DNA of 64,000 nt, taken from positions 56,763 through 120,762 of IMG/VR virus record IMGVR_UViG_2747842453_000002; one strand, given 5' to 3'. This document shows, in pieces, positions 11,372 through 41,681 of the stretch; within the stretch, counting starts at the first letter, position 1, and every line of letters starts with the position of its first letter. Origin of the DNA: a virus (Duplodnaviria > Caudoviricetes). The position numbers and the translations under genes are program-made. Under the pieces are notes generated by a model. That model saw nothing but the letters and a program-made list of their open reading frames with translations. It was not told the DNA's origin and ran no database searches.

Positions 11372-12328
11372 CTATAAGTCCTCGTTAATAAATGTATCAC
11401 GCTTCATCTGTTTACATACTTGCATACAACGAGGCACAGGATTATCACTATCCCAACTATTAACTATACCTTGCCATACATCGCTACTTATAGCATCTTC
11501 AACACTTACATTATTCAAGTTAATTGAATTTTTATAATCAGTATCTCTAAGTAATGTCTCATAACTATCTTTGGTATTACCACTTACGCCATACTCCAAT
11601 GTCTTTGCATTTAGATGACAACAAGGAATAACATCACCTGTATGGTTTATAAAAATTCGTTTTTGATTTCCATACTTACAACTTACATAAGGAATTTCTT
11701 GTGCAGTATCAATCTTCTCTGTATTTGCTGCTTTTATATTTCCAGTAGTGTCTTTACGATGACTAATAATAGTTTTGAAGTTTTTAAACCCCTCATTCGT
11801 GGCTTTGCTTTTGGCTTCCTCCAACTGATGTTCGTTATGTTCGAACACGATAAACTGCCATACACTTTTGCCACCTGCTGCATTGAAAGCTCGATAGTTT
11901 TGTTCGACTTTTTTGAAATTACTACCCTGACGATATACTTCACTTAGTTCATCACTGCCGTCAATTCCCCAAGTAACATTATGGCTACTTGGTAAAATAC
12001 TTGCTAACTCAGTCCACCAGTTAGTAGTTCGCAAACTACCGTTCGTTGCAATATTGATGTGTGTATTCCAATCAGCAAAATGGCGTATAATATCAAAGAA
12101 CTGTGGATGACTTGTTGGTTCGTCTATACTGCCACAAAAGTTTACAATTTTAATACTAGGAAATAATTCTTTTTTAAATTTTTCACGTATAGTTTCTATT
12201 GTAAGATATTCTTTATTGATAAGATCATCAGCGTGTTTAGATATAACTCGCAAACAACCTTTGCACTCAATATTACAAAAACTAGTAAGTTCTATATCTA
12301 ACCATTCTATTGTATCCATATTCCACAT
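11372..12328 (-). CDS. radical SAM protein with C-terminal SPASM/twitch-like domain (subfamily A)
   Basis: CNIECKGC, TNGS, GIDG, WQFIVFEHNEHQ, C-terminal PCC...CMQVC. Confidence 0.9.
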   Translation of the reverse strand: MWNMDTIEWLDIELTSFCNIECKGCLRVISKHADDLINKEYLTIETIREKFKKELFPSIKIVNFCGSIDEPTSHPQFFDIIRHFADWNTHINIATNGSLRTTNWWTELASILPSSHNVTWGIDGSDELSEVYRQGSNFKKVEQNYRAFNAAGGKSVWQFIVFEHNEHQLEEAKSKATNEGFKNFKTIISHRKDTTGNIKAANTEKIDTAQEIPYVSCKYGNQKRIFINHTGDVIPCCHLNAKTLEYGVSGNTKDSYETLLRDTDYKNSINLNNVSVEDAISSDVWQGIVNSWDSDNPVPRCMQVCKQMKRDTFINEDL

Positions 12329-12393
12329 ATTATTATTCTCCTCGCATTGAATTATTTTTTAGATGGTAACTCAATGTCACGTAATTATCAGTT

Positions 12394-13650
12394 TTATACC
12401 TCATGCCAATATTTCCTGAATTCTGGATAAACATCTAATATATTAGTTTCGTGGTGTTGATCTTGTGCATTAGCATATTCAATAAAGTCATCCCAATAAT
12501 GATACCAATCCTCACCATTCATATAATTAATTACGTTATCTCCAAATTTCTTCCATCTCTCAAATGATCTGTTTACAAATTTTTGTGAGTGATTATAAGA
12601 TTGCATCCATTCTCTATCTCCATTAATCAATTCATCCCAATCATTTGTTACTTTCTCTTTTAATGCCGGTGGTAACAATTTAGGATTTAATGGACGAGGA
12701 AACTGAACAATACTTGTGTGATAATCAACTCCCATTGAATAGTAATACTTGGCGATTTCAGTTGCTCTCGTAATATTTAATAAATTGGCTGTCATTGTTG
12801 CACTTAGTTGAATGTTGCTTAACTGTAGTGCTTTTTTTATATTATCTTCTGCTATTGATAAATTGCCTCGAACTCTAACGTATTCATATATTTCAGGATA
12901 GGCATCCAAACTAACTCGTATACTAACACGCTTAAAATGCTTCCACAAATCTAGTATACTTTTTCCCTTATATTCTAGTGTACTAAAATTACTATTATAT
13001 TGTAATGTAATATGGTTTGCTTCAGGTAAAATACGCTCTAAAAAATCATAATGCTTATCATGGAACAAAGGTTCCCCGCCTGTAATCATCAATTCAGTAA
13101 GGTTCGGACTAAGTGAAACCACTTCATCAATTATCTCTTGTGTTAGACTAACATGCTTTTCAAGTTCCCTGTATGTTCCAACTTTTTTCATTTGTCCCAT
13201 TAATATCGGATCTCGTTTCGCCTTCTGTTCCCATATGCTACTATATGTAGGAGAACAATGTCTACACATCAAATTACAGATATTATCAAAACGTATTTCA
13301 ATACTTTGTAAATTTTTAATTGGGTAACTACCATCTTCTTCGATATTGTTAATAATATTATTACTATCAACATCAGGATACATTTCAGCCGCATTTTGAC
13401 GTAAACTTTTCGCACCGCTACGTTCTAAATCCCAACAACTTATACAACCTTTATGTTGAACTCCATTTACCAATTCGGTTCGCACTTTACGTAACTGTTC
13501 GCCATTCCAAGTATCTGTAAGTGTATCTGTTAGAAAATCTCCAACCTTATCTGGATATCTCCAACACGCACTCAACTTACCTTCATTTTTAATGTTAATA
13601 TGATGGAAAGGCATTATGCAAAATGTATCACTCTTATTCTTATCTTCCAT
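12394..13650 (-). CDS. radical SAM protein with N-terminal twitch/SPASM-like domain (subfamily B)
   Basis: FCIMPF...ACW...CISC, then CNLMCRHC, TGGEP, SLDA. Confidence 0.9.
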   Translation of the reverse strand: MEDKNKSDTFCIMPFHHINIKNEGKLSACWRYPDKVGDFLTDTLTDTWNGEQLRKVRTELVNGVQHKGCISCWDLERSGAKSLRQNAAEMYPDVDSNNIINNIEEDGSYPIKNLQSIEIRFDNICNLMCRHCSPTYSSIWEQKAKRDPILMGQMKKVGTYRELEKHVSLTQEIIDEVVSLSPNLTELMITGGEPLFHDKHYDFLERILPEANHITLQYNSNFSTLEYKGKSILDLWKHFKRVSIRVSLDAYPEIYEYVRVRGNLSIAEDNIKKALQLSNIQLSATMTANLLNITRATEIAKYYYSMGVDYHTSIVQFPRPLNPKLLPPALKEKVTNDWDELINGDREWMQSYNHSQKFVNRSFERWKKFGDNVINYMNGEDWYHYWDDFIEYANAQDQHHETNILDVYPEFRKYWHEV

Positions 13651-15060
13651 TTATATATCCTTAAATATGTCTTTCATCTCTGTAAAGGTAGAACTAAAAC
13701 TATTGTTACGCTGCCTATCACATAGACTTAAATATTCTTTTAACTCTGGAAGTCTAATGCTCCAGTCTTCACTTTCCATAAATTGTACCATACCTTGAAG
13801 ACGCTTTATTCCGTATTCTGCGTCGATAAAATTTTCTTGTGTTACATTGTCCTTATGCCAACTTGGGATACCTAGTTCCCAATTCGCTTCCCACCATGGA
13901 TAAAACTCTTCATACTTTTTACGTACTTCTGCTTTAAACCAGTCTGGTAATACTTTAACATTAAGATGTGCTGGGTGATAAACAAAGTGATAATTAATTC
14001 CGCCAGCGCCGAATGGCCACATATTAATTTTACTAAAACCTTGTTCCAGTTTCCATTTAATGAAATCTGGAATATAATATATGTTCAAAGCCTGCACTGC
14101 ACATGCAACAGTTACTTCTACATTGTCACTCGTTTGCTTGTCTAATATATGAAATACTTCTTTCTGTCTGCTCCATTCACTAGGATAGCGAATGTAATCA
14201 TTCATATCTTCAATACTATCAACACTATAATGAAAGCGTACTAATTTAAATTCTTTCCATAGATCAAATAAATCATCTCTCCACTCTACACCATTTGAGT
14301 TATAGCGTAGTTCAAGGTCCTTTGCGTAACCCATTTTGATAGCGTGTTCAAGTATTTCGTAGTGTTCTTCAATAATAAGACTTTCGCCACCTGCAAAATA
14401 TATCTGTTGCATACTAGGCATCTGATCGTAAAACTGTTCCCAAAATTTTGGATTCTGCTTATGCCAATTATAACTACTTCTATTAGTACTACCTTTGTCA
14501 GCCCATTGCATTGTCTCCTTTAGAGATTCGTTTTTTACCTCTGGAAAAATCTTTTTATAATCTTTAATCCAGCCACTACTATCGTGTGGACTACACATTA
14601 CACATGCTAATTGACACTTAGTACCAAATCTTAAATCAATATATGCTAACTGTGGAGGAACGCCGCCGTCAGCAGATGTGTTTTCAATAAGTTCATCAAC
14701 ATTGACACGTTGGCTCCAATAATTTGTTTCCCACATACGTTTACTATTATGTCCGGATGCCTCTTCCTTGTAACACTTCATGCAACTAGGTGGCTTTTCA
14801 CCATTAAGCATTTGTAGCCGTACATTCTTCATGTAATTAGAATTCCACGCAGTTTCAAAGTCACTAACATTTAGATTGTTTGGTTTACCATCATCTGTTT
14901 TAAGAATTCCTACTTGTCCGCCATGAACTTTGTCATTAGTTGGTCCAACTGAACTCGCATTTGCAGTACAACATACTCGCATACTGCCATCGGGACGGGT
15001 GCTAAGATGTACCCATGGCAACAGACAAAAAGTCTCGCTTGGATATTTTTTTTCAGACAT
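13651..15060 (-). CDS. radical SAM protein with N-terminal twitch/SPASM-like domain (subfamily B)
   Basis: FCLLPW...VCC...CMKC, then CQLACVMC, AGGE, YIRYP. Confidence 0.9.
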   Translation of the reverse strand: MSEKKYPSETFCLLPWVHLSTRPDGSMRVCCTANASSVGPTNDKVHGGQVGILKTDDGKPNNLNVSDFETAWNSNYMKNVRLQMLNGEKPPSCMKCYKEEASGHNSKRMWETNYWSQRVNVDELIENTSADGGVPPQLAYIDLRFGTKCQLACVMCSPHDSSGWIKDYKKIFPEVKNESLKETMQWADKGSTNRSSYNWHKQNPKFWEQFYDQMPSMQQIYFAGGESLIIEEHYEILEHAIKMGYAKDLELRYNSNGVEWRDDLFDLWKEFKLVRFHYSVDSIEDMNDYIRYPSEWSRQKEVFHILDKQTSDNVEVTVACAVQALNIYYIPDFIKWKLEQGFSKINMWPFGAGGINYHFVYHPAHLNVKVLPDWFKAEVRKKYEEFYPWWEANWELGIPSWHKDNVTQENFIDAEYGIKRLQGMVQFMESEDWSIRLPELKEYLSLCDRQRNNSFSSTFTEMKDIFKDI

Positions 15061-15086: not shown

Positions 15087-15115
15087 ATTATACTAATATT
15101 TTAAGTGATTGTCAA
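15087..15115 (-). promoter_or_regulatory. consensus sigma70 promoter for the 15060-11372 radical SAM genes
   Basis: Minus strand TTGACA-N17-TATAAT. Confidence 0.8.
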
Positions 15116-15199: not shown

Positions 15200-15880
15200 T
15201 TATACATGCCAGTTTACATACTCGTCCTGTGGCGGTTTTGGTTCGACTGCCCACTTATTACCCTGTTCCTTAGATTCTGCTGGTACCATTTGTTGTGTGT
15301 GAAGATTATAGGTTTCGTCAACGTTTGTGCTGGCGACACCTACACCAACCACTAACTGTACTTCATCGGGATAGTCTAAACCAAGTGCAGGTAAAATAGT
15401 AGTATCCCATCCACTGTATTCAAAATCCAAACAACGACAAAATCCACACTGTAACCCTCTGGCTGCGGCACTGTAAATTAGCATATGACTTGCTAATCCT
15501 ATTTCCATTGCACTCAAACTCAGATATAGTAAATCTTGATTTCTTTCACTATAGTCATATGTCAGAGGTGAAGGAATTCTTCCAGTGAATACAACGAGCC
15601 AATTAGCCAGTGTTTGTGAGTTATAATGTTTTGTTTCAGGATTATGTCTATCCACTGCCATTTCATAAAATTCATTGCGCAACGCAGTATCGCTCCAATC
15701 AAGTATATGCATTCCAAAGTGTACTTGGTTCTGTTTACACGGCGTCCTGCGATGAATTTCGTCCACTATTTCTTGCATTGTTTCCTGTGTAACTGACGCA
15801 TCTAAATTCCAATTACTTGTTTGCATTCTTAGATCAGTTAACTCTTGCCATGCTTGTAATTTTGTATTTGTTTCACTCAT
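15200..15880 (-). CDS. nitroreductase-like flavoprotein (likely start 15880)
   Basis: R..S.W, TPCKQN, and MEIGLASHMLIYSAAARGLQCGFC resemble the nitroreductase fold. Confidence 0.6.
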   Translation of the reverse strand: MSETNTKLQAWQELTDLRMQTSNWNLDASVTQETMQEIVDEIHRRTPCKQNQVHFGMHILDWSDTALRNEFYEMAVDRHNPETKHYNSQTLANWLVVFTGRIPSPLTYDYSERNQDLLYLSLSAMEIGLASHMLIYSAAARGLQCGFCRCLDFEYSGWDTTILPALGLDYPDEVQLVVGVGVASTNVDETYNLHTQQMVPAESKEQGNKWAVEPKPPQDEYVNWHV

Positions 15881-16967
15881 TTTTACTCTCCATAATATGT
15901 TCATCTATCTTAAATTTTGCAATTGGTTTTGTTTCTTGAACTTTCTTACTACACGTACTTGCACATTTAACCATCTTACTTCCGCAACTTGTACCATATT
16001 CTGAATCGAAACTTCCTACTAAATCTTTTTTATAAAATGGATGATTTAATATTTCATCAACACTATGTAAATCTAATCGATTCCAATCAGGTGAACTATA
16101 TTCACTATACATGGTTTTACTTACCTGATGCCAATGTGTGTTGTGACCACCGAATTCAGTATTTCTAATAAAACAGCAAGGCCACAGGCGTGCATTGAAA
16201 TCAATAAAATACATTTTTTGTCTTTGAAAGAAACAGTCAATTGGATCGTTTTCAACACTTTTCTTTGATATAAAAAACTTATCAAGATCATCTGGGCTTG
16301 AATTATTATATTGTTTATCTTCAGCCTGAATTCGCCGTATGTCTTCTATTTCCCAATTATTCTCGGATATCATACTACGGTCTAACCTATGTATGAAATG
16401 CTTAAATCCCATCTGCTTACTTTTCTCACTTGCTTCTTCAACTTGATGTTTATTCCATGGGAATACCAAATACTGCCAGCCAGCATCTCCACCTGCCTGA
16501 ATGAAAGATTCTGCATTTTGCATAATTCGATCAAAATTAGTTCTCTGTCTATATATATGATTGGTATCTTGTAAACCATCTATACTAAATTTCAATTGGT
16601 GCCTGTCAAACTGTTGTAGTATCTCAGCAGTTTCAGCCCAATAACTGGGATTTCTAGTACTACCATTAGTATGTATCCAAACTTTTTTTATTCCACATTT
16701 TAATGCTAACCTAAGAATATCATTAAATTGGGGATGCATGAAAGGATCATCAACTGTTCCGCAAAAGTCCAAATCTGTAACTGTCTCAAACTCATTTAAG
16801 AATTTTTCAATCACATCTAGTTGTAGAATCTTTTTATCTGGAATAGTTGGCATCTTACCATTAAAATTTAGATGATTAGTACGTGCACAGCCGAAGCACA
16901 GTGCATTGCACATACTACTAATCTCTAGTTGTAATCGTGTAGGCTCCGGTAGATACATCTGCGTCAA
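15873..16967 (-). CDS. radical SAM protein with C-terminal SPASM/twitch-like domain (subfamily A)
   Basis: CNALCFGC, HTNGS, FSIDGL, WQYLVFPWNKHQ, WPCC...CASTC. Confidence 0.9.
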   Translation of the reverse strand: MTQMYLPEPTRLQLEISSMCNALCFGCARTNHLNFNGKMPTIPDKKILQLDVIEKFLNEFETVTDLDFCGTVDDPFMHPQFNDILRLALKCGIKKVWIHTNGSTRNPSYWAETAEILQQFDRHQLKFSIDGLQDTNHIYRQRTNFDRIMQNAESFIQAGGDAGWQYLVFPWNKHQVEEASEKSKQMGFKHFIHRLDRSMISENNWEIEDIRRIQAEDKQYNNSSPDDLDKFFISKKSVENDPIDCFFQRQKMYFIDFNARLWPCCFIRNTEFGGHNTHWHQVSKTMYSEYSSPDWNRLDLHSVDEILNHPFYKKDLVGSFDSEYGTSCGSKMVKCASTCSKKVQETKPIAKFKIDEHIMESKNE

Positions 16968-17949
16968 TGTACTTATCTCCTTTTTTTATATTTTTAATCT
17001 TAGTTGTTTGTAAATCAGTCAAACATCCACATAAGTCCCACTTACATTTTACTGGCAGTAATGGAATACTGTATTCTTTATCACTTATATTACCATATTT
17101 TAAGTTCTTAAAACACTGGCTGCCAGGTTTGATCCACCCATTATGTTGAACTACTAGTGTTTCAATCCCCATATTACAATACCAATCTTTCCAATCATTT
17201 AGTTGTGGTAATAGTATTTCATTTTCTATACTTTTAACTATTACTGGTTCTTCTCCGTCTTTTCTCCACTGCATTTTGCTTTGATTTTTTAGATTTGGGG
17301 ATCCGTTTAATCTCTGCAGAGAATTCATTGTTGCTAATTGTATATCTGTATAAGGTTGTAATTCATGCTTCCGTATTGATATTCTGACAGGCTTATATTG
17401 TAAACTAACACCAGGTATTAAATTATCATACAAATATTTATATGTGTCAACACACCCATCAAATTGCGCAATATCCATCATAACATGCAACGATATATTT
17501 ATACCTGATTTTTGGACTTGATTAAATTTTTCAACAATCTTTTCTTTTTTGGTTTGTCCCTCATGTATACTTACAATAAGTAAATCGAATAGATGCGCTT
17601 TATCTGTCCACCATTTTGTACTACGTGTGCCGTTAGTTAATAATCGGATTATATTATTTTCATTTATATTTTTAATATATTCACAAACTTTCGTCACCTC
17701 AGGCCATAGTGCAGGTTCACCGCCATGAAAATTAAAAAACATTATTTTGTTTTGAGGGACACATATGTTTTCCCATACAAAATCAATGAACCTAATGCAA
17801 TTATCAAAATCATGCCAGGGAACTCCGCCGTCCCAACATGCTGGATCACAGTAAGAGCATTGGAAATTACAAGTGTTTCCTGCTGCCCAATCAATAATTA
17901 TTGCATTTTCTTTTACAGGTTCAAAATAATCATATTCATATTTTGTCAT
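16918..17949 (-). CDS. radical SAM protein with C-terminal Cys-rich domain (subfamily C)
   Basis: CNFQCSYC, HGGEP, TNGTR, WKDWYCNMG...CKWDLCGC. Confidence 0.9.
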   Translation of the reverse strand: MTKYEYDYFEPVKENAIIIDWAAGNTCNFQCSYCDPACWDGGVPWHDFDNCIRFIDFVWENICVPQNKIMFFNFHGGEPALWPEVTKVCEYIKNINENNIIRLLTNGTRSTKWWTDKAHLFDLLIVSIHEGQTKKEKIVEKFNQVQKSGINISLHVMMDIAQFDGCVDTYKYLYDNLIPGVSLQYKPVRISIRKHELQPYTDIQLATMNSLQRLNGSPNLKNQSKMQWRKDGEEPVIVKSIENEILLPQLNDWKDWYCNMGIETLVVQHNGWIKPGSQCFKNLKYGNISDKEYSIPLLPVKCKWDLCGCLTDLQTTKIKNIKKGDKYIDADVSTGAYTITTRD

Positions 17950-19040
17950 CGAAATTGCTCCTTGAACGGATCAAACTCAGTTCCGCATTTCATTGCGCAT
18001 ACTCCCAGTTTACCATCACTTATGCTAGTTTTATCCCAACTATCGGTAATACTAGTTAAGAGATTACCAGACATTGCATCTTCTATGCTAATTTCAATAA
18101 CATTAATTCCGTCTTTTCCGCCAGCAGCATCTATATGATCCCATATCTGTTCTACACGATAATCTTTATGCCACCACTTATACATACGACCCGCAGTCCA
18201 ACAGCATGGCATCAATAGGCCTTCTGCTGTTATAAAGATTTCATTCTTTTCAACTGCCTTACACGATATATTACATTTGTCATAATATTCACGCATACTA
18301 CCATATGATTTTTCTATTTCTTTTTGCTTTAATAGAGCAATATTTTGGTTGTCAGTACTTTTAGGTTTAGCGATTACCGCAGTCTTTTCTCCATTGCGGT
18401 TTTGTGCCTGGTGTGTATCTTTAGACGTTTCTCCACTTGCAACTATAAATCTCCCAGATTTTTTCTTTTGAAACTTTTCACATCCCCATTCAATTGCAAG
18501 TGTTTCTGCTTCTGCAACCTGATGTTCATTGTGTTGGAATATCAGGAAGTCCCATCTTGCTCTACCACCAGCAGAGATGAATGCTTTCATATTACGTTCT
18601 ACATTATCCCAAACAACATTTTGTCTGTAAAGATGATTTGTATCACGAAGACCATCAACACTAAAGATTACTGCACCTTTATTATTGATAACTCCAGCCA
18701 ATTCTTCCCACCATTCTGTATTCTTTGCACCAGCATTTGTGTTCATACTTAGCCACATTGTTGGATTATGTTCTCTAAAGTATTTAAATACTTCTAATGT
18801 ATCTTTAGCAACAATAGGATCACCAAGATTACCACACATATACATCGCATCTAATTGTCCAATAAACTCTGGAGAGAATATCTTTTTACAATCGTCTATT
18901 GATAGTTCTGCATTTGTAATATGTCTATTATCAACACCGCCATTTTCATTTCGGTCACACATAGGACACGCTGCTTGACAACGTTGCGTTATTTCTAAAT
19001 GAACTTGTTTTATGTTATCGTATCTATACAAGTCTACCAA
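17946..19040 (-). CDS. radical SAM protein with C-terminal SPASM/twitch-like domain (subfamily A)
   Basis: CQAACPMC, CGNLGDP, FSVDGL, WDFLIFQHNEHQ, MPCC...CAMKC. Confidence 0.9.
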   Translation of the reverse strand: MVDLYRYDNIKQVHLEITQRCQAACPMCDRNENGGVDNRHITNAELSIDDCKKIFSPEFIGQLDAMYMCGNLGDPIVAKDTLEVFKYFREHNPTMWLSMNTNAGAKNTEWWEELAGVINNKGAVIFSVDGLRDTNHLYRQNVVWDNVERNMKAFISAGGRARWDFLIFQHNEHQVAEAETLAIEWGCEKFQKKKSGRFIVASGETSKDTHQAQNRNGEKTAVIAKPKSTDNQNIALLKQKEIEKSYGSMREYYDKCNISCKAVEKNEIFITAEGLLMPCCWTAGRMYKWWHKDYRVEQIWDHIDAAGGKDGINVIEISIEDAMSGNLLTSITDSWDKTSISDGKLGVCAMKCGTEFDPFKEQFR

Positions 19041-19078: not shown

Positions 19079-19990
19079 CTACTTATATCCAATTAGCATA
19101 AATCTCGTATACTTATCAAGTTCTAATTCGCCACTATATAATATATTTTGCATAGGCGCCGTTACTGCAAACTCTTCTATACTTCCAACACAATTAACGT
19201 GTTCTTCAATTTCATAATAATCATTACTTTGTAAAATTACTATCTTTCCCTGAGGGATCTTAGTATACCATTCAGAAAAGTTTTGTATATGTTCACAACT
19301 TGTATTTATGATTGTATCTGGTATATCATCTTGTTCGCAGGCAGTGCCGTCTGATCTATGTGTTGTATAAGTTTCACTAGCAAAATTTATATCAAAAATA
19401 TCTTTAGTTGATGCTTTAAATTGCCATTCATTTACTACCCAGGGTTTATTAAAAACTTCAGCAATTTTAGCGCATGATGGATCAATATCGAAAGACCTAA
19501 CTTTATCCACTTTAATGTTACTCTCAAATAACATTGTAGCAAGTGTAGCATACCACCCGGCACATAGAAATACTGTACCTAAATCTAAGTTTAATTTCTT
19601 TAATTCTTTTACAATCCAAAGTTTGCTTTTCAATTGTCCTCTACTAAAACAATCATTCCATATTTTTGTATCATTTACGAAAAAATTTTTAAACGCTGCT
19701 GTAAACTGTGTGTCTACATAGCGTTCTAGTATAGGCCATAACTTCCAAGTATTATCCTCTAAGACTAGTCTGCGCAAATCCTCATCATTGACTAAACGAA
19801 ATAGACTATGCAAATTTTGTTCTAATACTGCTTTACGTAATTCTTCAATATCTCCCAAGACATTATTAGGCATCAGTCTAAAAATACTGCTGATATCTTG
19901 ATCAATGTACGCTCTACGCAAGTCTGCTAACTTGGTGTTTGTAGGATACAATAATTCAAATCTGTCTAATAATTCAAATGTAGGAAGCAT
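19079..19990 (-). CDS. class I SAM-dependent methyltransferase-like protein
   Basis: VFLCAGWYATL, RSFDIDP, IINTSCEH Rossmann-type pattern. Confidence 0.6.
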   Translation of the reverse strand: MLPTFELLDRFELLYPTNTKLADLRRAYIDQDISSIFRLMPNNVLGDIEELRKAVLEQNLHSLFRLVNDEDLRRLVLEDNTWKLWPILERYVDTQFTAAFKNFFVNDTKIWNDCFSRGQLKSKLWIVKELKKLNLDLGTVFLCAGWYATLATMLFESNIKVDKVRSFDIDPSCAKIAEVFNKPWVVNEWQFKASTKDIFDINFASETYTTHRSDGTACEQDDIPDTIINTSCEHIQNFSEWYTKIPQGKIVILQSNDYYEIEEHVNCVGSIEEFAVTAPMQNILYSGELELDKYTRFMLIGYK

Positions 19991-25001: not shown

Positions 25002-25054
25002 ATTTAATATATCCTTTTTTATTATATTCGTAGTTATTTATCTTGAGAAAAGGG

Positions 25055-25083
25055 TTGACATTATAGACGAATCACTTTATAAA
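25055..25083 (+). promoter_or_regulatory. sigma70-type promoter with GANTC (CGAATCA) box in spacer
   Basis: TTGACA-N7-CGAATC-N4-TATAAA, 17-bp spacer. Confidence 0.8.
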
Positions 25084-28926: not shown

Positions 28927-28961
28927 CTTTTTTTCTCCTATAATTTTTAGATGATCGTTTT

Positions 28962-30455: not shown

Positions 30456-30572
30456 AGTCTTATCCTTTAAAATTGTTTTTATTAGATTTAAGACATGCTG
30501 TTGTAACTCTACAATACATGATAATAATACGAATCCGTATTACTTTTATTTATCTTTTATATACGTATATAA

Positions 30573-32401: not shown

Positions 32402-32417
32402 TGTGTTCTTTCTTTTC

Positions 32418-33509: not shown

Positions 33510-35548
33510 TTTTTTACGATTCCATTAAAATCATTTATATTACATTCCAATGTATATACTTGTGTATCAAAACTCATATCTTGCCGACGCACTTCATCGT
33601 TTAATACTCTTGGATCCTCTCTAGTAGTTTCATGTTTAAATCTATGCTCAACTTTAAAAGTAAGTTGTTCATTTTCATCAACCCGCATATTAATAGTTCC
33701 CCAATATGGACTTACAATAAATCCTCCAAACTCGGACAGGTCGTCATCTAAATCATGATGCATATTTAATTCAAATGCACCATATGTTTTATATAGAATC
33801 CAAGCAAATGGCAAATATTCATTTGCTAAACTTGCACTAAATTGTAATTTCTCAGTGTCGCCGCTGAAATAGTCAAATGATTGTCCAGTTTCTTGTGGAA
33901 CATAATCTACAAAATCATCATTGGTTAATTGTTTAAAATCAAAAAATTGTGTTAGACCAGGTCGATACTGTGCATTTTTTACTGTTCCATCTGCGATATT
34001 CACAGCAAGATATAACCAAATCTGCATAAACTTTAATCTAATAAATCTATGTAAAATAGTATTAGCATAATCTTCTGTATACCAATTACTCATAAATGTA
34101 TTATCCCATGGTTTGTCTATCCATTGTAATTTATAATCTGCCCAATTAACATTCAGGTCACTAAATGGCGCATCTCCGCATGTCATTCCAGGACTAATTG
34201 CAAACATCCATTTTCTTGTGTTATGTAAAACATGTAAACTATGCAGAAATTCGGCTGGACCTTCAGTAGGAAATCCTACAACCCAGTTAACGTGATTCTT
34301 CATACCAACTTTAGCACCATCACGTAGATTATTTTCAATTTCCCAAACTTTTACCTTTTTCTTCATATCGTCTAAAACTTTTTCACTGCCACTTTCGACT
34401 CCGAAACTTAGACTCATACATCCACTATCAGCAATCTTCTGAAATAGTTCTAAATCCATCCGTCCATCACAACGTGCGTAACTATTCCACCTGATATCAA
34501 GTTTTTTATCTACAATCATGTTTACGAGATTTTTGAATTCTTTAAATGCACCATTCGCAAGACTGTCTACAAACCAGAACCGACGAGTACCATATGTATC
34601 TATTTGATATTGCATTTCATCAATGACACGATCACTTGTTCTAAATCTATATTTCCAAAACCAGGTTTCAGCACAGAAACTGCACTTAGCAACACAGCCT
34701 CTGCTAGTCTCAATACTTGCTCCTTCCGGATGTTGATATAGATTTAAGTCATAATCACTGTAATCTGGAAATGGCAATTGATTTAAATCTAGTTTACTCT
34801 GAAAACCACCAAATGTAACCATCTCTTTATTCATTGGAAGTTCTTTATAGTTTTCTAATAATGTTAATAGTTCTTGTTCACCTTCGCCCGTAACACGATA
34901 ATCAATAATTCCGGATTTAAAATCAAGTGTTGAATAAATTAGATCCTCAAACCAATCATTAAACGCTTCTGGTCCACCTACTACAATCTTAGTTGATGGA
35001 CTGCGTTCTTTAATTTTTTCAATCATGTACATTGTACTCAACAGGTTGGTCAAGTATACACTAAATCCAACTATGTCATCGCCTTGTTCAATAATTCTAT
35101 CAATGCATTCATCTAATTTAGGTTTAATAATTGGAAAAACTTCATCATCATAAACAGGGCGCTCCCATGCGAAATAATACCTACTTTCCCAATAATCTTT
35201 ATCATGATTTTCTTTACAATAATGATAGCACTCAACGTTTAAGTCATAGACATTGACACGATATCCATAATGTCTAAGTAAACCACTGAGTCTTGCAATA
35301 TTATATGGAGGAAAAATAATTCCCCATGCTGGTGCAATAATCATGGAAATTCCATCATTACTTTCATATGGGTTTACTTCAGTGTAATAATTATATCCTC
35401 GTGGGTGTACTTTATTTTGTACTACTGGTATTCTTTCAGTATCACCCAGATGACTTTCAGCATGATCTATTCGATCTTGCTCAATAAGTTTTTTAATAAC
35501 CTCATCACGATCTTCGCTTTCAAAGATTATATCTTTATTTTTAGCCAT
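33506..35548 (-). CDS. cobalamin-binding radical SAM enzyme (class B methyltransferase-like)
   Basis: B12-binding region (VGFSVY, VVGGP, GEGE), ETSRGCVAKCSFC, FGVESGS, VGFPTE. Confidence 0.9.
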   Translation of the reverse strand: MAKNKDIIFESEDRDEVIKKLIEQDRIDHAESHLGDTERIPVVQNKVHPRGYNYYTEVNPYESNDGISMIIAPAWGIIFPPYNIARLSGLLRHYGYRVNVYDLNVECYHYCKENHDKDYWESRYYFAWERPVYDDEVFPIIKPKLDECIDRIIEQGDDIVGFSVYLTNLLSTMYMIEKIKERSPSTKIVVGGPEAFNDWFEDLIYSTLDFKSGIIDYRVTGEGEQELLTLLENYKELPMNKEMVTFGGFQSKLDLNQLPFPDYSDYDLNLYQHPEGASIETSRGCVAKCSFCAETWFWKYRFRTSDRVIDEMQYQIDTYGTRRFWFVDSLANGAFKEFKNLVNMIVDKKLDIRWNSYARCDGRMDLELFQKIADSGCMSLSFGVESGSEKVLDDMKKKVKVWEIENNLRDGAKVGMKNHVNWVVGFPTEGPAEFLHSLHVLHNTRKWMFAISPGMTCGDAPFSDLNVNWADYKLQWIDKPWDNTFMSNWYTEDYANTILHRFIRLKFMQIWLYLAVNIADGTVKNAQYRPGLTQFFDFKQLTNDDFVDYVPQETGQSFDYFSGDTEKLQFSASLANEYLPFAWILYKTYGAFELNMHHDLDDDLSEFGGFIVSPYWGTINMRVDENEQLTFKVEHRFKHETTREDPRVLNDEVRRQDMSFDTQVYTLECNINDFNGIVKK

Positions 35549-36771
35549 TGGTCTCTATACTCCGCTAATTTAGGATGTACCAATCCTATATCTTGATTAC
35601 GTATCTGATCATATTTAACTGTTCGTTTTGCCCAGTTAAGTCTACGGGCATCTAGGTCATCAAATTTACTCCGAAGTCTGAATACCGTTGCATCCATTCT
35701 GCATTGTGTTTTTCTATACTCAGGTAGGGTTTCAACTCGCTGTTCGATCTGATCAGCAATTTTCATTCTATCATCGTGTGGAATTATGTCTATGCTCATA
35801 TCTTCTGGCCAATTCACATGATTAAAAACTAATATATTATTGCTATGTTCTTCATGTTCTTTCCAAAAGTCAATAATATTAGGTAAATCAAAAACATTAT
35901 AGGCTTGAACTGTACTCAATATATTTACTGTGCTTACACTACTAATATTCCTGTACATATGATAATTAGTTTCAATAGTATTCCACTCGCTCGGATGACG
36001 TATATAATCATTTGTATATCCTATGCCATCAATGCTATATTGAATATCAACACTATCAAACTTTTCTAACCAGTTAATTACTTTACCTTTTCCTCTGGTA
36101 CCATTGGTTGTTATATCTAAATGTAAATGTGTATTACCAGAATCAACGCACCATTTAAGAAATTTAATAACACCAGGCATGAATAATGGTTCGCCGCCTG
36201 CCAACTTTATGGTTTTTATATGAGGAATAAGTGCTTGTAAACTTTCATACATAGTTGGATTATTAATCCACTCTTGTAATTCAAACCAACTTTCGCCAGT
36301 TACTTCTTCTAATTCTGGATGCTTTTTGTGTTCATCTGCAAACGTACTACTAACTGCAACAAAGCACATTCTACATCCTAGATTACAAAATCTACCAGGA
36401 CGCAAATCTAACCACAATGGTTTTTCTGTTGTATTACCAGTCTCTACTGAAATATCCCAATCATGCGTTGGCGCTTTAAAGTAATTATTATGTGCCCATC
36501 TATCACTGCCGCCTCCTTTTTCATCTAATGCATAGCACATATGACATGCCTTAATTGGTTTTCCATCAATCATATCTTGTCTAATTTTTTGATATGCAGG
36601 ACTATTCCAAATTTCTTCAAATGTTTTATCAGTTAAATCTTCAAATAAACTTTCTCTCCAGTCGGCAACACAGCATAATTTTGCAGCGTTATCTGTACTC
36701 AAATGCATATGCGTAAATGGCAGCACACAAAAGTGTTTATTATCTTTTACCTGTTGTTGCCAATTTGACAT
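35527..36771 (-). CDS. radical SAM protein with N-terminal twitch/SPASM-like domain (subfamily B)
   Basis: FCVLPF...LCC...CHMC, CNLGCRMC, AGGEP, TTNGT, SIDG, YIRHP. Confidence 0.9.
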   Translation of the reverse strand: MSNWQQQVKDNKHFCVLPFTHMHLSTDNAAKLCCVADWRESLFEDLTDKTFEEIWNSPAYQKIRQDMIDGKPIKACHMCYALDEKGGGSDRWAHNNYFKAPTHDWDISVETGNTTEKPLWLDLRPGRFCNLGCRMCFVAVSSTFADEHKKHPELEEVTGESWFELQEWINNPTMYESLQALIPHIKTIKLAGGEPLFMPGVIKFLKWCVDSGNTHLHLDITTNGTRGKGKVINWLEKFDSVDIQYSIDGIGYTNDYIRHPSEWNTIETNYHMYRNISSVSTVNILSTVQAYNVFDLPNIIDFWKEHEEHSNNILVFNHVNWPEDMSIDIIPHDDRMKIADQIEQRVETLPEYRKTQCRMDATVFRLRSKFDDLDARRLNWAKRTVKYDQIRNQDIGLVHPKLAEYRDQWLKIKI

Positions 36772-38419
36772 CTTTTTTCCTCATTTCCTTAGCAGTACAA
36801 AACTGAACCATTTTATATATATCTTCCAAACTTTCTTTCCAATTTTCTTTTCTTATTTCATCTAATTTCTTTCCTGAAGCGAAAAATGTTTTCCATTGTG
36901 ATGGGTCATCTTCTACTGAATTCATATGTGTTAATACTGCTTCAAGACGGGTCTCTGTAAGACTTAACCATGCGTTATCATCCGGCCATTTCTTTCTAAT
37001 ATCAACATAAAATTTACGATAACGATTTGTGATATATGATTTCATTGATTTAGGAATATTTTGAGTGTTTAAATAATCTGGTCCATATAAGTTATGAACA
37101 ATGATATTACTATCGATGGTATTCCAGTTTTGTTCACGCATCCACCATTGCATATCTAACAAATGTAACACATTCATAATACTGACTGTCATTGTTACGC
37201 TTGCTTTAAGATTTGTAAATTCATTATTGTCAATACGTTTCATATTCTTATAAGCAGTATTCCATTTTCCAGGATATCTGATATACTCAAAATGTTCATA
37301 TATACCATCAATGCTCATTCCCAAATTAACTTCCTTAAATTTCTTCCACTGTTTAAATATAGCACCTGGTACACCAGCCATATTAGTATTGTAGTCTAAA
37401 ATTAAATCTTTGGCATATCCATTATCTATCGTATACTGCAGTAACTCTCTATGTGTATGATTTATAGTAGGTTCTCCGCCAGTAAAATAAAATCTTTTTA
37501 TATTTGAAATTTCATTTTTTATATTTGAAACTAAGTCAGTTTTGTCAAACCATTCAAATGGAGAATCTTTAACAATTGCAGAACCGTTTTCATCTGTTTC
37601 AATAGTAACATCTCCTATTCCACGATTAAAAAATGTATTCTTACCTGTAAACTTCTCCCAATCTTTATACCATAAATTACTATCTGTTGGTCCACAACTA
37701 CGGCATGCTAAGTTACACTTATTACCAAATCTTAGATCCCAATGTTCAATAGGAAAATCTTCATGATTTATAGAACCATCTTCTGCAGTATTCAAAATTG
37801 CATTATCAAAAGTTTGATTAAATGCTTGATTGGTCCAAGTTCGTCTACTACCGATACCATTATCTTCCTCATCCCAACATAACTTGCATATCTCCGAACG
37901 TTGCCCACTAAGCATTTCTTTTCTTAACTTTTTCCATGCTGTGGAATTTCTATGTTCCGATATGTTATCAGTTGTCGTAAGCGCAGTGCCGTCATCTTTA
38001 AAGACAGTGCCATATGCCTCTTCACCATCAAAGCCTTGATTATTAATCATCTGACAACACATTCTGACTGTGCCATTTGCATTTGTACTAACATGATTCC
38101 ATGGCACTGCACAGAATGACTTTCTTCTTCCATCATCTTTCTTCGCAATCATCACTGATCGCATAGCATGTAGTTCATCTACAGTGTAATCAAATTTAAC
38201 CGATATAGATTTAATCAATTTGTCATCTATATGTGTGGCAATTAATGTTCCTAAAACAACTGACTTATCTAAATCATGTTCAACAACGCTCTCTAACACA
38301 TCCTTGGGACACTCTGGATCTTGAACCATATCAATTCTCTGTTCAGATGTTCTAAATACTGACAAGTCAAATTTATTATCAGTATCAATTTCCTCATATT
38401 TTAATCCATCATCATTCAT
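36740..38419 (-). CDS. radical SAM protein with N-terminal extension and twitch/SPASM-like domain (subfamily B)
   Basis: FCAVPW...MCC...CKLC, CNLACRSC, TGGEP, SIDG, YIRYP. Confidence 0.9.
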   Translation of the reverse strand: MNDDGLKYEEIDTDNKFDLSVFRTSEQRIDMVQDPECPKDVLESVVEHDLDKSVVLGTLIATHIDDKLIKSISVKFDYTVDELHAMRSVMIAKKDDGRRKSFCAVPWNHVSTNANGTVRMCCQMINNQGFDGEEAYGTVFKDDGTALTTTDNISEHRNSTAWKKLRKEMLSGQRSEICKLCWDEEDNGIGSRRTWTNQAFNQTFDNAILNTAEDGSINHEDFPIEHWDLRFGNKCNLACRSCGPTDSNLWYKDWEKFTGKNTFFNRGIGDVTIETDENGSAIVKDSPFEWFDKTDLVSNIKNEISNIKRFYFTGGEPTINHTHRELLQYTIDNGYAKDLILDYNTNMAGVPGAIFKQWKKFKEVNLGMSIDGIYEHFEYIRYPGKWNTAYKNMKRIDNNEFTNLKASVTMTVSIMNVLHLLDMQWWMREQNWNTIDSNIIVHNLYGPDYLNTQNIPKSMKSYITNRYRKFYVDIRKKWPDDNAWLSLTETRLEAVLTHMNSVEDDPSQWKTFFASGKKLDEIRKENWKESLEDIYKMVQFCTAKEMRKKDVKLATTGKR

Positions 38420-39305
38420 TTGGCTGTCCTAATTTATTATTATTTTCTATCCAACGATTCGTTATGCCAATCGCTTTATCAGTGTCCAATTTTGGTACTA
38501 TTTTTTTTATTTTTTGCCAGAATATGGTAGAATCTTTATCTAAGTTATCAGAATCAACAACATGTAAATTCTTAAAAGTTCTTACATACTTTGGTAAAAA
38601 AGTTATGTATGTATTTATTAAAGATTCTTTATGGTCTTCTTTAAGGACATTTATGTCACTGGTGTGCTTCAATCGTATGTTTTTATTTTTAACAATCGAT
38701 GAGTGATGTGTGTCATATGAAACAGGATTTTTATAATTATTAGATTCTAACAAATCATTTAATAGTGCATAAAGTTCATGTCTCCAAACCCAATCAAATT
38801 TTTTTGTTTCATCTATCATAAATTGTTGTTGTTTTTCTGACAGTGTAGTAGAAATTGTTGAGTTTATAAAATCAACAGTAATAGGACAATCTACTTTTAC
38901 CGCTAACTTTTTTATCGCTAGATCGGCAAAATAGTCTATTGAATCTTTTTTAGGAAATGCTAAGTCAATATAAATTATCGTAATATCTGGTAAATATCTT
39001 TTATAAAATTCTATAGAATTATTGCTTGGATGGTCTTTTACAATAATTCGTTTTTTAATAGAAACGAAATCACCCTTGTATCTTGTTTCAATACCATTCT
39101 CAAATTTAGTTATATCTTCTACTAAATCCATATATCGTAACGCACATATTGAATGATATTGATTCACATTTTTATTTACCCACGTGTATATGTCTTCAAA
39201 TTGATCACAGCATGTACTAAGTGTATGAGCAATGTGTTCGCCACCAAGACCAGCAGGATACACTATCAGTATTGGATGCGCATTAATAAAATCATTATGA
39301 TTCAT
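38412..39305 (-). CDS. hypothetical protein, possibly P-loop/sulfotransferase-like
   Basis: IVYPAGLGGEHIA near N-terminus, KDHP. Confidence 0.5.
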   Translation of the reverse strand: MNHNDFINAHPILIVYPAGLGGEHIAHTLSTCCDQFEDIYTWVNKNVNQYHSICALRYMDLVEDITKFENGIETRYKGDFVSIKKRIIVKDHPSNNSIEFYKRYLPDITIIYIDLAFPKKDSIDYFADLAIKKLAVKVDCPITVDFINSTISTTLSEKQQQFMIDETKKFDWVWRHELYALLNDLLESNNYKNPVSYDTHHSSIVKNKNIRLKHTSDINVLKEDHKESLINTYITFLPKYVRTFKNLHVVDSDNLDKDSTIFWQKIKKIVPKLDTDKAIGITNRWIENNNKLGQPNE

Positions 39306-40699
39306 TATTGTTCCTTGAAAAATTCTATTTCATTATCACTGTAATTTACAAGAGATTCTGCATCATTGATGTCACGAATAGGCACTAAACTAAGTGAGCC
39401 TTTCATTCTTCCATTTGCTCCAGTTGTATTCCATTCTGGAATTTCTGTAATTCTATCTTTGAGTTGTTGTGCACGATCAAGAAATCCTGGTGGGGTCATT
39501 AGTTTTATTTCTAACCATAAGTCATCATCTATAATATCATGGTGTTTCATTATTATTTTACAGTTATCTAAAAATCTATCTTCATTACCGCGATACAAAT
39601 CCATACTTGCAAAATGTGCACTCATATTAACACTATTTATGTATTGTGTTGCTTCACTCCAGAATTTTGTACTTCGACTACCATTTGTAGTTACCAATAT
39701 CCATTGATTTCGGGACTTTAAATATTTTAAAATGTCAATGAATTGTGGATGCATGGTAGGTTCACCTCCACCAAAATTCCATCTGATTTGTTCGCCATTA
39801 CTCCAATTATCTATAATCATATCGATAGTATTAATAACAGATTCAAACGATGGAAACTTTTCAGTATTACTATGAACTGCCGGCCAACAATAGTCACATG
39901 CATAATTACACCGTCTTCCAATGTCCCACAAGATTTGATATGGAATAGGAAAGTTCATTTCTACTCCAACACTTTCATCTATATTATCAGTGATATAATT
40001 CTTACCGCCACGTTTAGTGCCAGCATATTGATTATGTGTCACGTCCAGTAACTTCATATGTTCTACGGTTTTTGCTTTACTTAAAATTACATCTGCGCCG
40101 CAGCCACAACTCTTAAAAGGACAAACTGTATAATTTTCAGGTATGTCAATACCTTCACGAATATTGCCTAATAATCCCCAATTTTTTGGTATGTCATCTA
40201 ATGTACTTTCCCATTTCCATGCACTTGCAGTTGTATCAATATTATCTGTTTGAATGTTCTTTCCTAAATTCTTAAAAAAAGTTTCTTCTGCTTCTTTCAA
40301 CGCATCTTGTAGTTTAATATGTTGTTCGCATGTTTCCCAGCCGTTCTTAGGCAACGGCCAGCCACCTATAGTATTTTCATTATACCATTCAATATGCGGA
40401 TAAGAACCGAATATTCTTTCACGTTCAACCCTCCAGCCTTCTACAGTTGTATCATGATGTGCAGTACTATTTCTATGACTACTGGCACAGTTACCATTCC
40501 ATATATTACCATCGTAATCTATATAAAGTCCACGCACTCCTGCACTACACTGCCATCCCTTCCATTTGTTATGTTCTCTTGCAATAGCCTCATCCACACT
40601 CATTCTAATAAACTTGCCATTCGTATCATACACACGTAGTTGTTTATTATCTAATGGGATCCGAGGATCTGATTTAATAGGCATCTTCCAAAACCTCAT
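39305..40699 (-). CDS. radical SAM protein with permuted domain order (subfamily C)
   Basis: N-terminal WKGWQCSAG...CPFKSCGC, then CNYACDYC, GGGEP, TTNGSR. Confidence 0.9.
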   Translation of the reverse strand: MRFWKMPIKSDPRIPLDNKQLRVYDTNGKFIRMSVDEAIAREHNKWKGWQCSAGVRGLYIDYDGNIWNGNCASSHRNSTAHHDTTVEGWRVERERIFGSYPHIEWYNENTIGGWPLPKNGWETCEQHIKLQDALKEAEETFFKNLGKNIQTDNIDTTASAWKWESTLDDIPKNWGLLGNIREGIDIPENYTVCPFKSCGCGADVILSKAKTVEHMKLLDVTHNQYAGTKRGGKNYITDNIDESVGVEMNFPIPYQILWDIGRRCNYACDYCWPAVHSNTEKFPSFESVINTIDMIIDNWSNGEQIRWNFGGGEPTMHPQFIDILKYLKSRNQWILVTTNGSRSTKFWSEATQYINSVNMSAHFASMDLYRGNEDRFLDNCKIIMKHHDIIDDDLWLEIKLMTPPGFLDRAQQLKDRITEIPEWNTTGANGRMKGSLSLVPIRDINDAESLVNYSDNEIEFFKEQ

Positions 40700-41681
40700 A
40701 TCTATTTTTAGGAAGTACTTTTTTACTCATAATGTCAAAGTTACAATGACACATACTTTTTGTACACATTACAGGTTTAGTAGGCCATTTAATAGATTCA
40801 GGATATTTCATATTTCCAAGTATTCCGCCAACTCTACACCATCCTATCATAACACTGCCATCGAAATCTACAACAATTTGTTCAACACCACTCCAACACA
40901 ACCAACCTTTCCAGTTATTTGTCTTATCGTTAATAAAACGATGAGCACTACTATTTTGTTTCATGTTATTGACATCATCATGCATATCCATACTACCACG
41001 ATAAATTTTCCATTTCTTATCATGCTGTATTTTATTACCTAATCCCCACCATTGATTGTCAATATATTCAATCTGTTCTGGAGTATAATCATATAATGTT
41101 TCACCAAAATCAATGATTAGTGGCTGTAATGCAAGTGATATATTTGGAATGTCTATTACACTTTCAGCCACCTTTTGACATCTTGGCCATATCTCTGGGT
41201 CGTAATGCATCATAACATTTACATGTGTTCTACATTGTTGACTCATTATTTTTACAACTTCGATGAAATGCTCTGCATCGCCTTCTTCTGGATGATATGA
41301 AAGACATACATGGTCAAATTTTGTTTTATTCTTTTCCCACCAGCGAATCGTTCTACTACTATTGCTAATGAATCCTATATCATGACCAATTTCTTTGATG
41401 TACTCTGCACATTTAATAAAATCTTTCCAGAGTGTTACTTCTCCACCTGTAAATTCAAAATATACAGTTCTAGGATGATAATGAGCAATCGTAGAATCTA
41501 TGAATTTCTTTACAACATCAAAGTCATTCCATCCAAAACTGCCGTCATTTAGAATACTTGGACAATAGGAACATGTGAAATTGCACATATTTCCTAAATT
41601 CCAATTAACCACAACCCAGTCTTTGGCTTCATCGTGGTGATGATCAAGTCTATTATAAAATTCCTGCGGTCCGAGGGGCAT
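40674..41681 (-). CDS. radical SAM protein with C-terminal Cys-rich domain (subfamily C)
   Basis: CNFTCSYC, TGGE, WKGWLCWSG...CTKSMCHC. Confidence 0.9.
   Translation of the reverse strand: MPLGPQEFYNRLDHHHDEAKDWVVVNWNLGNMCNFTCSYCPSILNDGSFGWNDFDVVKKFIDSTIAHYHPRTVYFEFTGGEVTLWKDFIKCAEYIKEIGHDIGFISNSSRTIRWWEKNKTKFDHVCLSYHPEEGDAEHFIEVVKIMSQQCRTHVNVMMHYDPEIWPRCQKVAESVIDIPNISLALQPLIIDFGETLYDYTPEQIEYIDNQWWGLGNKIQHDKKWKIYRGSMDMHDDVNNMKQNSSAHRFINDKTNNWKGWLCWSGVEQIVVDFDGSVMIGWCRVGGILGNMKYPESIKWPTKPVMCTKSMCHCNFDIMSKKVLPKNRYEVLEDAY

Follow-up and report, generated by a model that had tools for sequence, protein, structure and literature searches.

An island of radical S-adenosylmethionine (radical SAM) genes has been analyzed in a 64,000-nucleotide stretch of viral DNA (the window), bases 56763-120762 of the 120.8-kb IMG/VR viral record IMGVR_UViG_2747842453_000002. 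Eleven radical SAM genes lie within 30 kb, a density far beyond chance. Ten of these fall into three paralogous families, A, B and C, and the eleventh, D, encodes a B12-binding enzyme. Sequence comparisons indicate that they form an old multi-paralog toolkit common to jumbo phages and one bacterial phylum, the Bdellovibrionota, and that the island consists of two conserved modules, each headed by a glycosyltransferase-like (GT-like) paralog, around which other radical SAM cassettes come and go. The explanation we lean towards is that this modular toolkit of old gene families builds a glycan and radically edits it.

All ten open reading frames (ORFs) that the original prediction, made from the window sequence, had named as radical SAM genes are present on the minus strand and match the Pfam family Radical_SAM (PF04055; gathering cut-off 29.5 bits). 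The eleventh, a B12-binding class B enzyme encoded at 33506-35548 in the second of two blocks of these genes, had been missed. Eight of the 11 proteins score above the cut-off; B3 (29.1 bits), C1 (29.0 bits) and B4 (24.8 bits) are slightly under it, but their radical SAM status is secured by the family profiles. The CX3CX2C motif of the SAM-cleaving [4Fe-4S] cluster is found in all 11 proteins and is invariant across families A, B and C.

An all-versus-all blastp search returns exactly the three subfamilies proposed earlier. The members of family A, A1 (11372-12328, 318 amino acids (aa)), A2 (15873-16967, 364 aa as called, with translation probably starting at the ATG of codon 4) and A3 (17946-19040, 364 aa), are mutually 25-32% identical (E 3e-26 to 2e-39). 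Those of family B, B1 (12394-13650, 418 aa), B2 (13651-15060, 469 aa), B3 (35527-36771, 414 aa) and B4 (36740-38419, 559 aa), are mutually 24-31% identical (E 4e-21 to 4e-57). In family C, C1 (16918-17949, 343 aa) and C3 (40674-41681, 335 aa) are 27% identical (E 1e-33), and C2 (39305-40699, 464 aa) is linked to both by core matches (E 4e-15 and 5e-15) as well as by a match of its transposed Cys domain (E 2e-5). The best match between families has an E of 1e-9 and is confined to the common radical SAM core. The motifs by which the subfamilies had been recognized can be read in the translations and alignments, except that A1 has DGSDELSEVYRQ instead of DG..DTN..YRQ. They are signatures of whole families: at other loci (77 family-A, 74 family-B and 45 family-C sequences), conservation of the Cys, DG/YR, W/F/N and GGE positions is 90% or higher. 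As noted before, both blocks contain families B and C, and family A is confined to the first; the two blocks, described then as separate sub-clusters, prove by synteny across related loci to be parts of one island.

Family B corresponds to NCBIfam NF033640 (N_Twi_rSAM, "twitch domain-containing radical SAM protein"). B1, B2, B3 and B4 score 323.6, 417.5, 317.1 and 348.5 bits against a curated cut-off of 170 bits, with model positions 1-398 covered. The twitch is placed first: a SPASM-like Pfam match at residues 11-97 precedes the core, and C12, C30, C93 and C96 are invariant together with CX3CX2C and GGE in the 74 family-B sequences. Families A and C match only in the core of NF033640 (40-52 and 25-38 bits) and reach no curated NCBIfam family. 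In family A, where the core is followed by a Cys-rich SPASM/twitch-like domain, the SAM-binding GGE is replaced by CG...P, and five C-terminal cysteines (C260, C279, C280, C348 and C352 in A3 numbering) are conserved in 77 sequences; A1 alone passes PF13186 SPASM (24.3 vs 21.5 bits), the full motif of which has seven cysteines. The PF04055 scores of A1 and A2 are 37.7 and 39.1 bits, and the best named NCBIfam match of the family, a tungsten-cofactor maturase, is far under its cut-off. Family C retains GGE and conserves four C-terminal cysteines (45 sequences). C1 and C3 (PF04055 34.1 bits) have the normal domain order, whereas C2 is circularly permuted, with the Cys domain first and the core last. 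This permuted type is widespread: numerous orthologs match over the full length (46-98% identity), and two Bdellovibrionales genomes have it too (L110:1882-2985, minus strand, and G008:C96:1929-2693), in one case beside a B gene. The best named match of family C is prokaryotic viperin, NF038283 (38.3, 54.1 and 46.7 bits vs a cut-off of 180, N-terminal core only). The 680-aa enzyme D has a PF02310 B12-binding domain (38.8 bits, cut-off 32.1; residues 146-225) N-terminal to PF04055 (59.5 bits; residues 279-439). It is under every specific NCBIfam cut-off, PhpK, C-methyltransferases of ribosomally synthesized and post-translationally modified peptides (RiPPs), HpnR and GenK-like families having been compared; the best is TIGR04479, at 122 vs 600 bits.

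The conserved extra cysteines indicate that all three families carry an auxiliary metal site. Since only cofactor ligands are invariant across each family, the earlier proposal that each paralog acts on a different site or substrate fits the sequences. The fold does not narrow this down. An AlphaFold2 (AF2) model of B2 (predicted local distance difference test score, pLDDT, 92) gave tied matches at Z 10.9-11.9 (Foldseek, VIA-align) to anSME, BlsE, CteB, viperin, DesII, SkfB and SuiB, a tie that spans sugar-, nucleotide- and peptide-acting enzymes, so the substrate cannot be read from it. PDB sequence profiles of A, B and C gave weak core matches only.

The age of the families is indicated by their orthologs. 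A scan of IMG/VR with the B alignment returned more than 494 contigs; a B2 ortholog at 68-100% identity was present on each of the 80 that were fetched, and thousands of further orthologs, many of them from Tara (marine metagenome) samples, are in the protein database. A3 orthologs are 45-75% identical, and at 40% identity or more they are found in 76 of the 83 viral loci. Against Bdellovibrionota genes, B2 is 55-60% identical, and A3 is 41-46% identical to genes that adjoin the B2 orthologs there. The other paralogs have ortholog series of their own: A1 at 61-68% identity in 14 of the 83 viral loci; B1 at 40-56% in nine viral loci; B3 at 78% in one locus (L118); C3 at 67-85%, directly upstream of C2 in nine loci; and D at 52-88% in seven of the nine loci L111-L119, the other two (L115 and L119) ending short of D. 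B4 has orthologs of the same length in the protein database (42-97% identity) with the N-terminal extension of about 95 aa kept, though an IMG/VR pattern scan with B4 gave no match. A hidden Markov model (HMM) census of 107 loci counted 392 B, 201 A and 128 C ORFs.

FastTree phylogenies of these divergent sequences, midpoint-rooted and built from 77 A, 206 B and 48 C representatives, agree with this picture. No two window paralogs are sisters; each groups with genes of other genomes. A1 has its own clade, C1 groups with four viral sequences, and the A2 clade holds six viral sequences and a Bdellovibrionota sister pair. The label viral or cellular switches 10-24 times per tree. The paralogs thus do not each group with a different bacterial family, as independent acquisitions would have it, yet the clades are not phage-only either, since those of A2, A3, B1 and B2 include Bdellovibrionota members.

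These data bear on the original prediction that the set arose by recent expansion in the phage lineage, through duplication within the genome followed by sub-functionalization. The genes are indeed clustered, in tandem and co-oriented, and members of one family stand next to each other (B1-B2, B3-B4, C2-C3). These neighbor pairs, however, are only 24-27% identical, against 42-99% for orthologs in other genomes; every window paralog falls in a separate clade (with starred support in the A tree); and the Bdellovibrionota hold the same paralog clades. With paralogs in the window at 24-32% identity, orthologs elsewhere far closer and no sister paralogs in the trees, the genes are to be regarded as old lineages rather than recent copies, and a recent expansion in this phage is extremely improbable.

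Comparison of related loci reveals the modular arrangement. Module 1 has the order GT-like, U-like, A3 ... B2, and module 2 the order GT-like, C3, C2, an unnamed gene, B4, B3 and D, with the unnamed gene and B3 not always present. Nine IMG/VR loci (L111-L119) were fetched through C2; eight keep the order of module 2, and L119 breaks off at C2. In related phages the frame runs from the flank genes through a GT-like gene of the 41879 type, one of the 20940 type, at least one U-like gene, A3, variable radical SAM genes, B2 and further variable radical SAM genes to thyA on the opposite strand, whereas the two GT-like genes of the window are separated by some 20 kb (22-41.7 kb), a block which contains module 2. 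The two GT-like genes, 41879 and 20940, are paralogous, and so are the two U-like genes, 19991 and 19079, which means that the genes other than radical SAM genes are family-built too. In copy number, related jumbo phages carry 8-20 PF04055 and 5-15 NF033640 matches.

Turnover of the island is cassette by cassette, by mosaic replacement. For example, when the window interval 33506-41681 is compared with a related contig (L117, IMGVR_UViG_3300027188_000006), C2 is 98%, the DUF6071 gene 99% and the ORF at 25520 93% identical, but B4 and D, although they lie between the near-identical C2 and DUF6071 genes, are only 43% and 52% identical, and B3 and the gene at 38412 are missing. That the subfamilies might work as obligate partners, as also suggested earlier, holds at most for the syntenic sets: an A3 ortholog accompanies B2 in the 76 viral loci mentioned, and C3-C2-B4-D keep their order. 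The stable co-occurrence of B2-A3 and of C3-C2-B4-D is consistent with functional coupling within each set. The families as such are not obligate partners in general, because B is found without A or C in eight of 23 cellular loci. Most related phages carry a 73-aa Cys-free ORF (L003:6246-6467, plus strand; equivalents at 53-86% identity in about 58 of 80 viral loci), which directly follows the U-like gene or genes and sits upstream of A3 and B2. Neither the window nor L001 and L002 has it, and no Bdellovibrionota locus does.

A homologous toolkit is present in bacteria. A scan of GTDB genomes with a narrow peptide pattern returned 27 loci, 20 of them with Bdellovibrionota-type record titles and four with other or broader labels, and the systematic cellular survey was made in the Bdellovibrionota. 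Loci from this phylum (GC content 30-52%) lie on contigs as long as 804 kb and, in the isolate Bdellovibrio sp. HCB2-146, on one of 2.2 Mb. They carry the same sets of A, B, C, D, GT-like and U-like genes, and identity in the core genes (U-like, GT-like, B2, A3 and C) is 38-60%. Five genomes gave 5-19 NF033640, 2-9 family-A and 1-7 family-C matches each. Of 151 sampled genomes of the phylum, 31 were positive, and none of 14 control genomes reached the NF033640 cut-off. In HCB2-146 the homologous island, at about 1.858-1.895 Mb, has six or seven B, three or four A and one C gene among genes of sugar metabolism: two UDP-Glc/GDP-Man dehydrogenases, NAD epimerase/dehydratases and a DegT aminotransferase. 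It also holds six strong and one weak GT2 gene, a GNAT gene, a short-chain dehydrogenase/reductase, a polysaccharide lyase, a PP-loop/QueC-like protein and a fatty-acid hydroxylase.

Several cellular records stand apart. Three small low-GC contigs (L081, L082 and L083), binned to metagenome-assembled genomes (MAGs) of Arcticimaribacter, Crocinitomicaceae and Neisseriaceae, have B2 at 73-83% identity and phage-like synteny, and look like misbinned phage contigs. A 1.6-Mb MAG of Candidatus Dojkabacteria (G010; L086) has five NF033640, two family-A and four family-C matches, so the toolkit may extend beyond the Bdellovibrionota, or the bin may be contaminated. In HCB2-146, the radical SAM/GT island is abutted by a 1965-aa protein (L109:7581-13478, minus strand) whose C-terminal Peptidase_S74 (endosialidase chaperone) domain is of a type known from phage tail fibers. 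The idea that the island decorates phage-like fibers in Bdellovibrio was dropped for want of a general S74 link: the other three S74 genes of HCB2-146 are 0.9-1.0 Mb along another contig, and G006 has none within about 95 kb of a radical SAM gene.

The head of module 1 is a 369-aa protein (20940-22049, minus strand) that matches PF00535 at 19.9 bits, under the cut-off of 23.3; the 313-aa head of module 2 (41879-42820, minus strand) has no PF00535 match. The latter is 28-35% identical to GT-like ORFs of other loci and 31% identical within the GT-like alignment, and its orthologs reach 315-329 bits with the GT-like HMM. A DxD motif, "VVDGD", is conserved in 24 sequences, D199 being invariant and D197 at least 90% conserved. 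In an AF2 model (pLDDT 85), all Foldseek matches with E of 1e-4 or less are GT-A enzymes, including WrtF, PBCV-1 A64R, ppGalNAc-T and SunS. The sub-threshold profile match, the DxD motif and the model together identify the module heads as GT-A-like transferases, as far as a predicted structure allows. Profiles of the GT-like and U-like families found no match in PDB. The two U-like genes (19079-20956, minus strand; 303 and 321 aa) belong to the conserved core, and the same ORFs are matched in other loci; a 30-sequence U-like alignment has no Pfam, NCBIfam or PDB match, and the ESM Atlas provides a methyltransferase lead only. In one related locus (L021:1-3303, plus strand) an open frame of about 1100 aa is split by tblastn into several U-like segments. 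Next to the head of module 1 a carbamoyltransferase of the NodU/CmcH type is encoded (22085-23617, minus strand; PF16861 181 bits, PF02543 148 bits).

The GT-A-like module heads, the tailoring genes, the sugar genes of the Bdellovibrio island and the known sugar-acting radical SAM enzymes together point to glycan building and editing. Sugars are oxidized, deaminated, dehydrated or epimerized by twitch-type radical SAM enzymes such as BtrN, DesII, NeoN and HygY, and C-methylated by class B enzymes such as GenK. The GT-like transferases would attach sugars, and the radical SAM enzymes would then abstract hydrogen atoms from unactivated sugar carbons, leading to epimerization, oxidation, deoxygenation or dehydration, or, through the B12 enzyme D, to C-methylation. 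Carbamoyl- and methyltransferases might finish the product. Different paralogs would make different edits, in which case cassette turnover would diversify the glycan. As acceptor, the virion and the host envelope are candidates, and so is a soluble nucleotide sugar. An extension of this scheme, put forward tentatively, is a combinatorial radical glycan editor, in which each module would combine its GT-A-like transferase with members of the three families to install sugars and then rewrite them, and cassette swaps among jumbo phages and predatory Bdellovibrionota would diversify glycans for the interaction of predator or phage with prey.

Several points weigh against the glycan explanation. Its sugar substrate is inferred from neighboring genes only, the specific chemistries and the biological role are proposals, and to our knowledge none of the three families has a characterized member; a literature search found no paper on the function of NF033640 and none on radical SAM genes in Bdellovibrio. 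The B2 model fits sugar-, nucleotide- and peptide-acting enzymes equally. The GT-like proteins are under the Pfam curated cut-off and their structural matches are modest (template modeling score, TM, 0.2-0.46), and no fold can be assigned to the U-like family or to six or more island genes. No nucleotide-sugar synthesis gene, flippase or polymerase was recognized in the window. Because related loci were gathered by way of B2 or C2 orthologs, co-occurrence is biased towards carriers, and many cellular homologs come from MAGs, though one island is on the 2.2-Mb isolate contig and another on the 804-kb contig.

Most SPASM/twitch enzymes act on peptides or proteins, and the strongest competitor is peptide or protein maturation, in which the radical SAM enzymes would cross-link, epimerize or methylate a RiPP or a virion protein and the transferases would glycosylate the peptide, as in glycocins. 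It would account for the sub-threshold NCBIfam matches, most of which involve peptide maturases (SkfB, PapB, the mycofactocin maturase, ScmE/F), for the RiPP C-methyltransferase family as second-best match of D, for SkfB, CteB and SuiB among the top Foldseek matches of B2, for the glycocin S-glycosyltransferase SunS among those of the GT-like model, and for an island that abuts virion genes. All these named-family scores, however, are far under cut-off, and the usual partners of such a pathway are missing. There is no space for an N-terminal RiPP recognition element (RRE) in A or C, because CX3CX2C begins at residue 18-33, and Pfam finds none in B or in the B4 extension, although a divergent RRE in the latter is possible; no leader protease or ABC exporter was found; and small conserved ORFs rich in Cys, Ser or Thr are absent from the window, the sole widely conserved small ORF of related loci being the Cys-free one described above. 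The cellular islands, moreover, lie among nucleotide-sugar enzymes and many GT2 genes. Peptide maturation is thus rather unlikely.

The same cellular context, chromosomal islands with GT2 and UDP-sugar genes, is hard to square with phage DNA modification, and hypermodification of nucleic acid or nucleotides is less likely again. Such a system would make a modified base, or an antiviral or anti-defence nucleotide analogue, aided by the thymidylate-synthase-like neighbor; phage thymidine hypermodification pathways reportedly use a radical SAM enzyme. The thyA homolog lies directly beside the island, but on the opposite strand and behind a terminator. Viperin is the best named match of C, with QueE weakly matched by C1, but the scores are 38-54 vs 180 bits and 24 vs 206 bits, respectively; viperin structures tie with the other matches of B2, and the Bdellovibrio island has its PP-loop/QueC-like gene. 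No DpdA/TGT, FolE, QueD, 5-hydroxymethyldeoxyuridine kinase or DNA glycosyltransferase was recognized among the window proteins with Pfam and NCBIfam. Tailoring of envelope lipids or lipid A, by C-C bond formation or methylation on acyl or isoprenoid chains, is very unlikely. The tetraether lipid synthase GDGT-MAS is the best PDB sequence match for all three families, but with weak E-values (4e-10 to 7e-3) and in the core only; D weakly matches ladderane-type lipid B12-radical SAM enzymes and HpnJ/HpnR, and the fatty-acid hydroxylase gene of the Bdellovibrio island would suit this chemistry. No acyl carrier, acyltransferase or Lpx genes were seen, and transferases and nucleotide-sugar enzymes dominate the context. 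The glycan explanation, with the modest preference already stated, is the one carried forward here.

The source of the window is presumably an uncultured jumbo phage of about 350 kb, given the kinship of its baseplate protein to that of a 342-kb record (92% complete) with the same island (45% identity). The record itself is about 30% complete by CheckV, and the GC content of the window is 33%. The baseplate wedge protein (56737-61131) and a 3114-aa virion structural protein (47389-56733) were recognized by PHROG matches, as were HNH endonucleases and thymidylate synthase; otherwise the nearest baseplate proteins are those of Salicola phage SCTP-2, RaK2 and CBB (34-38% identity). A megablast search with 9 kb of the window found no match among cultured phages, and tblastn of B1, B2 and A3 gave 21-27% matches at best (Vibrio K566/K567, Ralstonia RsoM2USA, Pelagibacter Mosig, Campylobacter CP220 and F379, and a marine virus single-cell contig), so that collection holds no close cultured relative. 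The region 11.3-47.3 kb is a single hypervariable accessory island, with thyA on one side and virion/baseplate genes on the other; the thyA homolog directly adjoins the island in the window and in L001, L002, L049 and L053. An A-type Fe-S cluster carrier gene (PF01521) is found outside the window in the same record (G000:C1:10475-10783) and in three of four related jumbo-phage records (G001, G003 and G005), which fits a supply of Fe-S clusters by the phage for its many radical SAM enzymes. Fe-S cluster supply to radical SAM enzymes has been proposed for T4-like genomes (PMC5332604).

The remaining features of the island are minor. A hairpin terminator with a 10-pair stem and a T run (11301-11323, minus strand) lies between the convergent A1 and thyA genes and ends the B2-B1-A1 unit. 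Ahead of B2, in a 140-bp gap and 27 nt before the start codon, is a sigma-70 promoter with a 12/12 consensus match (15087-15115, minus strand; TTGACA-17-TATAAT, then GGAG), conserved only in the near-identical loci L001 and L002. In scans of the window, sigma-70-like and terminator-like sites are as numerous as in shuffled sequence, and the T4 late-promoter box TATAAATA is not enriched (six in the whole window, shuffled mean 16.8, all 100 shuffles with at least six). Between B2 and A2 is a nitroreductase-like gene (15200-15904, minus strand, 234 aa; PF00881 E 0.005, under cut-off) with homologs in few loci. Besides unnamed genes, an accessory block (24270-32470, minus strand), found only in some related loci, holds the DUF6071 gene, a methyltransferase-like gene and a TctA transporter (28962-30455); a single ORF inside it (25520-26290) is on the plus strand. 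The unnamed 297-aa gene in the B4-C2 interval (38412-39305, minus strand) has no family match and a 39% identical ortholog in L118; the unnamed island genes as a whole gave nothing usable from Pfam (E up to 5) or NCBIfam. The conserved left flank (42823-47332, minus strand), made up of a 204-aa, two ~285-aa, a 115-aa, a 356-aa and a 224-aa ORF, abuts the 3114-aa virion gene and is syntenic in L111-L119. A "GT8-like" label for the two ~285-aa ORFs (43415-45132), which are conserved and syntenic in related phages, was not confirmed: the best Pfam/NCBIfam E is 0.04, at chance level, and hhalign gave no link to the GT-like family.

Radical SAM enzymes perform chemically difficult reactions, and this phage lineage invests in 8-20 of them per genome. 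Two of the three unstudied families have unusual domain orders, an N-terminal twitch and a circular permutation that is conserved across many genomes. The problem is tractable, with old families that keep fixed module partners and a homologous island in a cultured Bdellovibrio: expression can be aimed at two conserved pairs, B2/A3 and C3/C2, and HCB2-146 could serve as a genetic system. If the product is a glycan, the island would represent a new route to glycan diversity and a shared toolkit linking phages and predatory bacteria; if the combinatorial editor were true as well, new enzymology and a gene pool common to two kinds of bacterial predator would follow.

Among known systems, a proposed chemical parallel is with BtrN, DesII, BlsE, NeoN, HygY and GenK, in which a radical SAM core with an auxiliary Fe-S domain is encoded amid glycosyltransferase and sugar-tailoring genes. 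BlsE and DesII are among the tied structural matches of B2, and BlsE is also a weak sequence match of family A. The island proteins differ in that they have no sequence-level membership in these families: the twitch of B is N-terminal, C2 is permuted and A has CG...P for GGE. The known sugar-acting enzymes, furthermore, are single in antibiotic pathways, whereas here there are 8-20 paralogs. The RiPP maturases SkfB, CteB, SuiB, PqqE and MftC share the superfamily, auxiliary Cys clusters and weak profile matches, but the island has no RRE, precursor, protease or exporter, and the scores are far under the curated cut-offs. The module-head protein has, among its best structural matches, PBCV-1 A64R, a soluble transferase of GT-A type from a virus; we know of no radical SAM tailoring in the PBCV-1-type glycosylation machinery.

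In genomic setting, the closest parallels are marine myoviruses. A pelagimyophage host-recognition cluster with radical SAM cassettes (PMC7029224) and a T4-like environmental genome with 12 radical SAM genes (PMC5332604) likewise have a hypervariable island by structural genes with glycosyltransferases, transport genes and variable radical SAM cassettes. The window phage belongs to a ~350-kb lineage with baseplate proteins nearest those of SCTP-2, RaK2 and CBB, unlike the T4-like pelagiphages. In those two papers radical SAM genes are only counted or mentioned, whereas their family structure, orthology and cellular counterpart are analyzed here. NF033640 is matched end to end by all four B genes, which share its N-terminal 4-Cys domain, CX3CX2C and GGE. 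This family had been catalogued only, and its multicopy occurrence, up to about 15 per jumbo-phage genome and up to 19 in Bdellovibrionota, has been worked out here.

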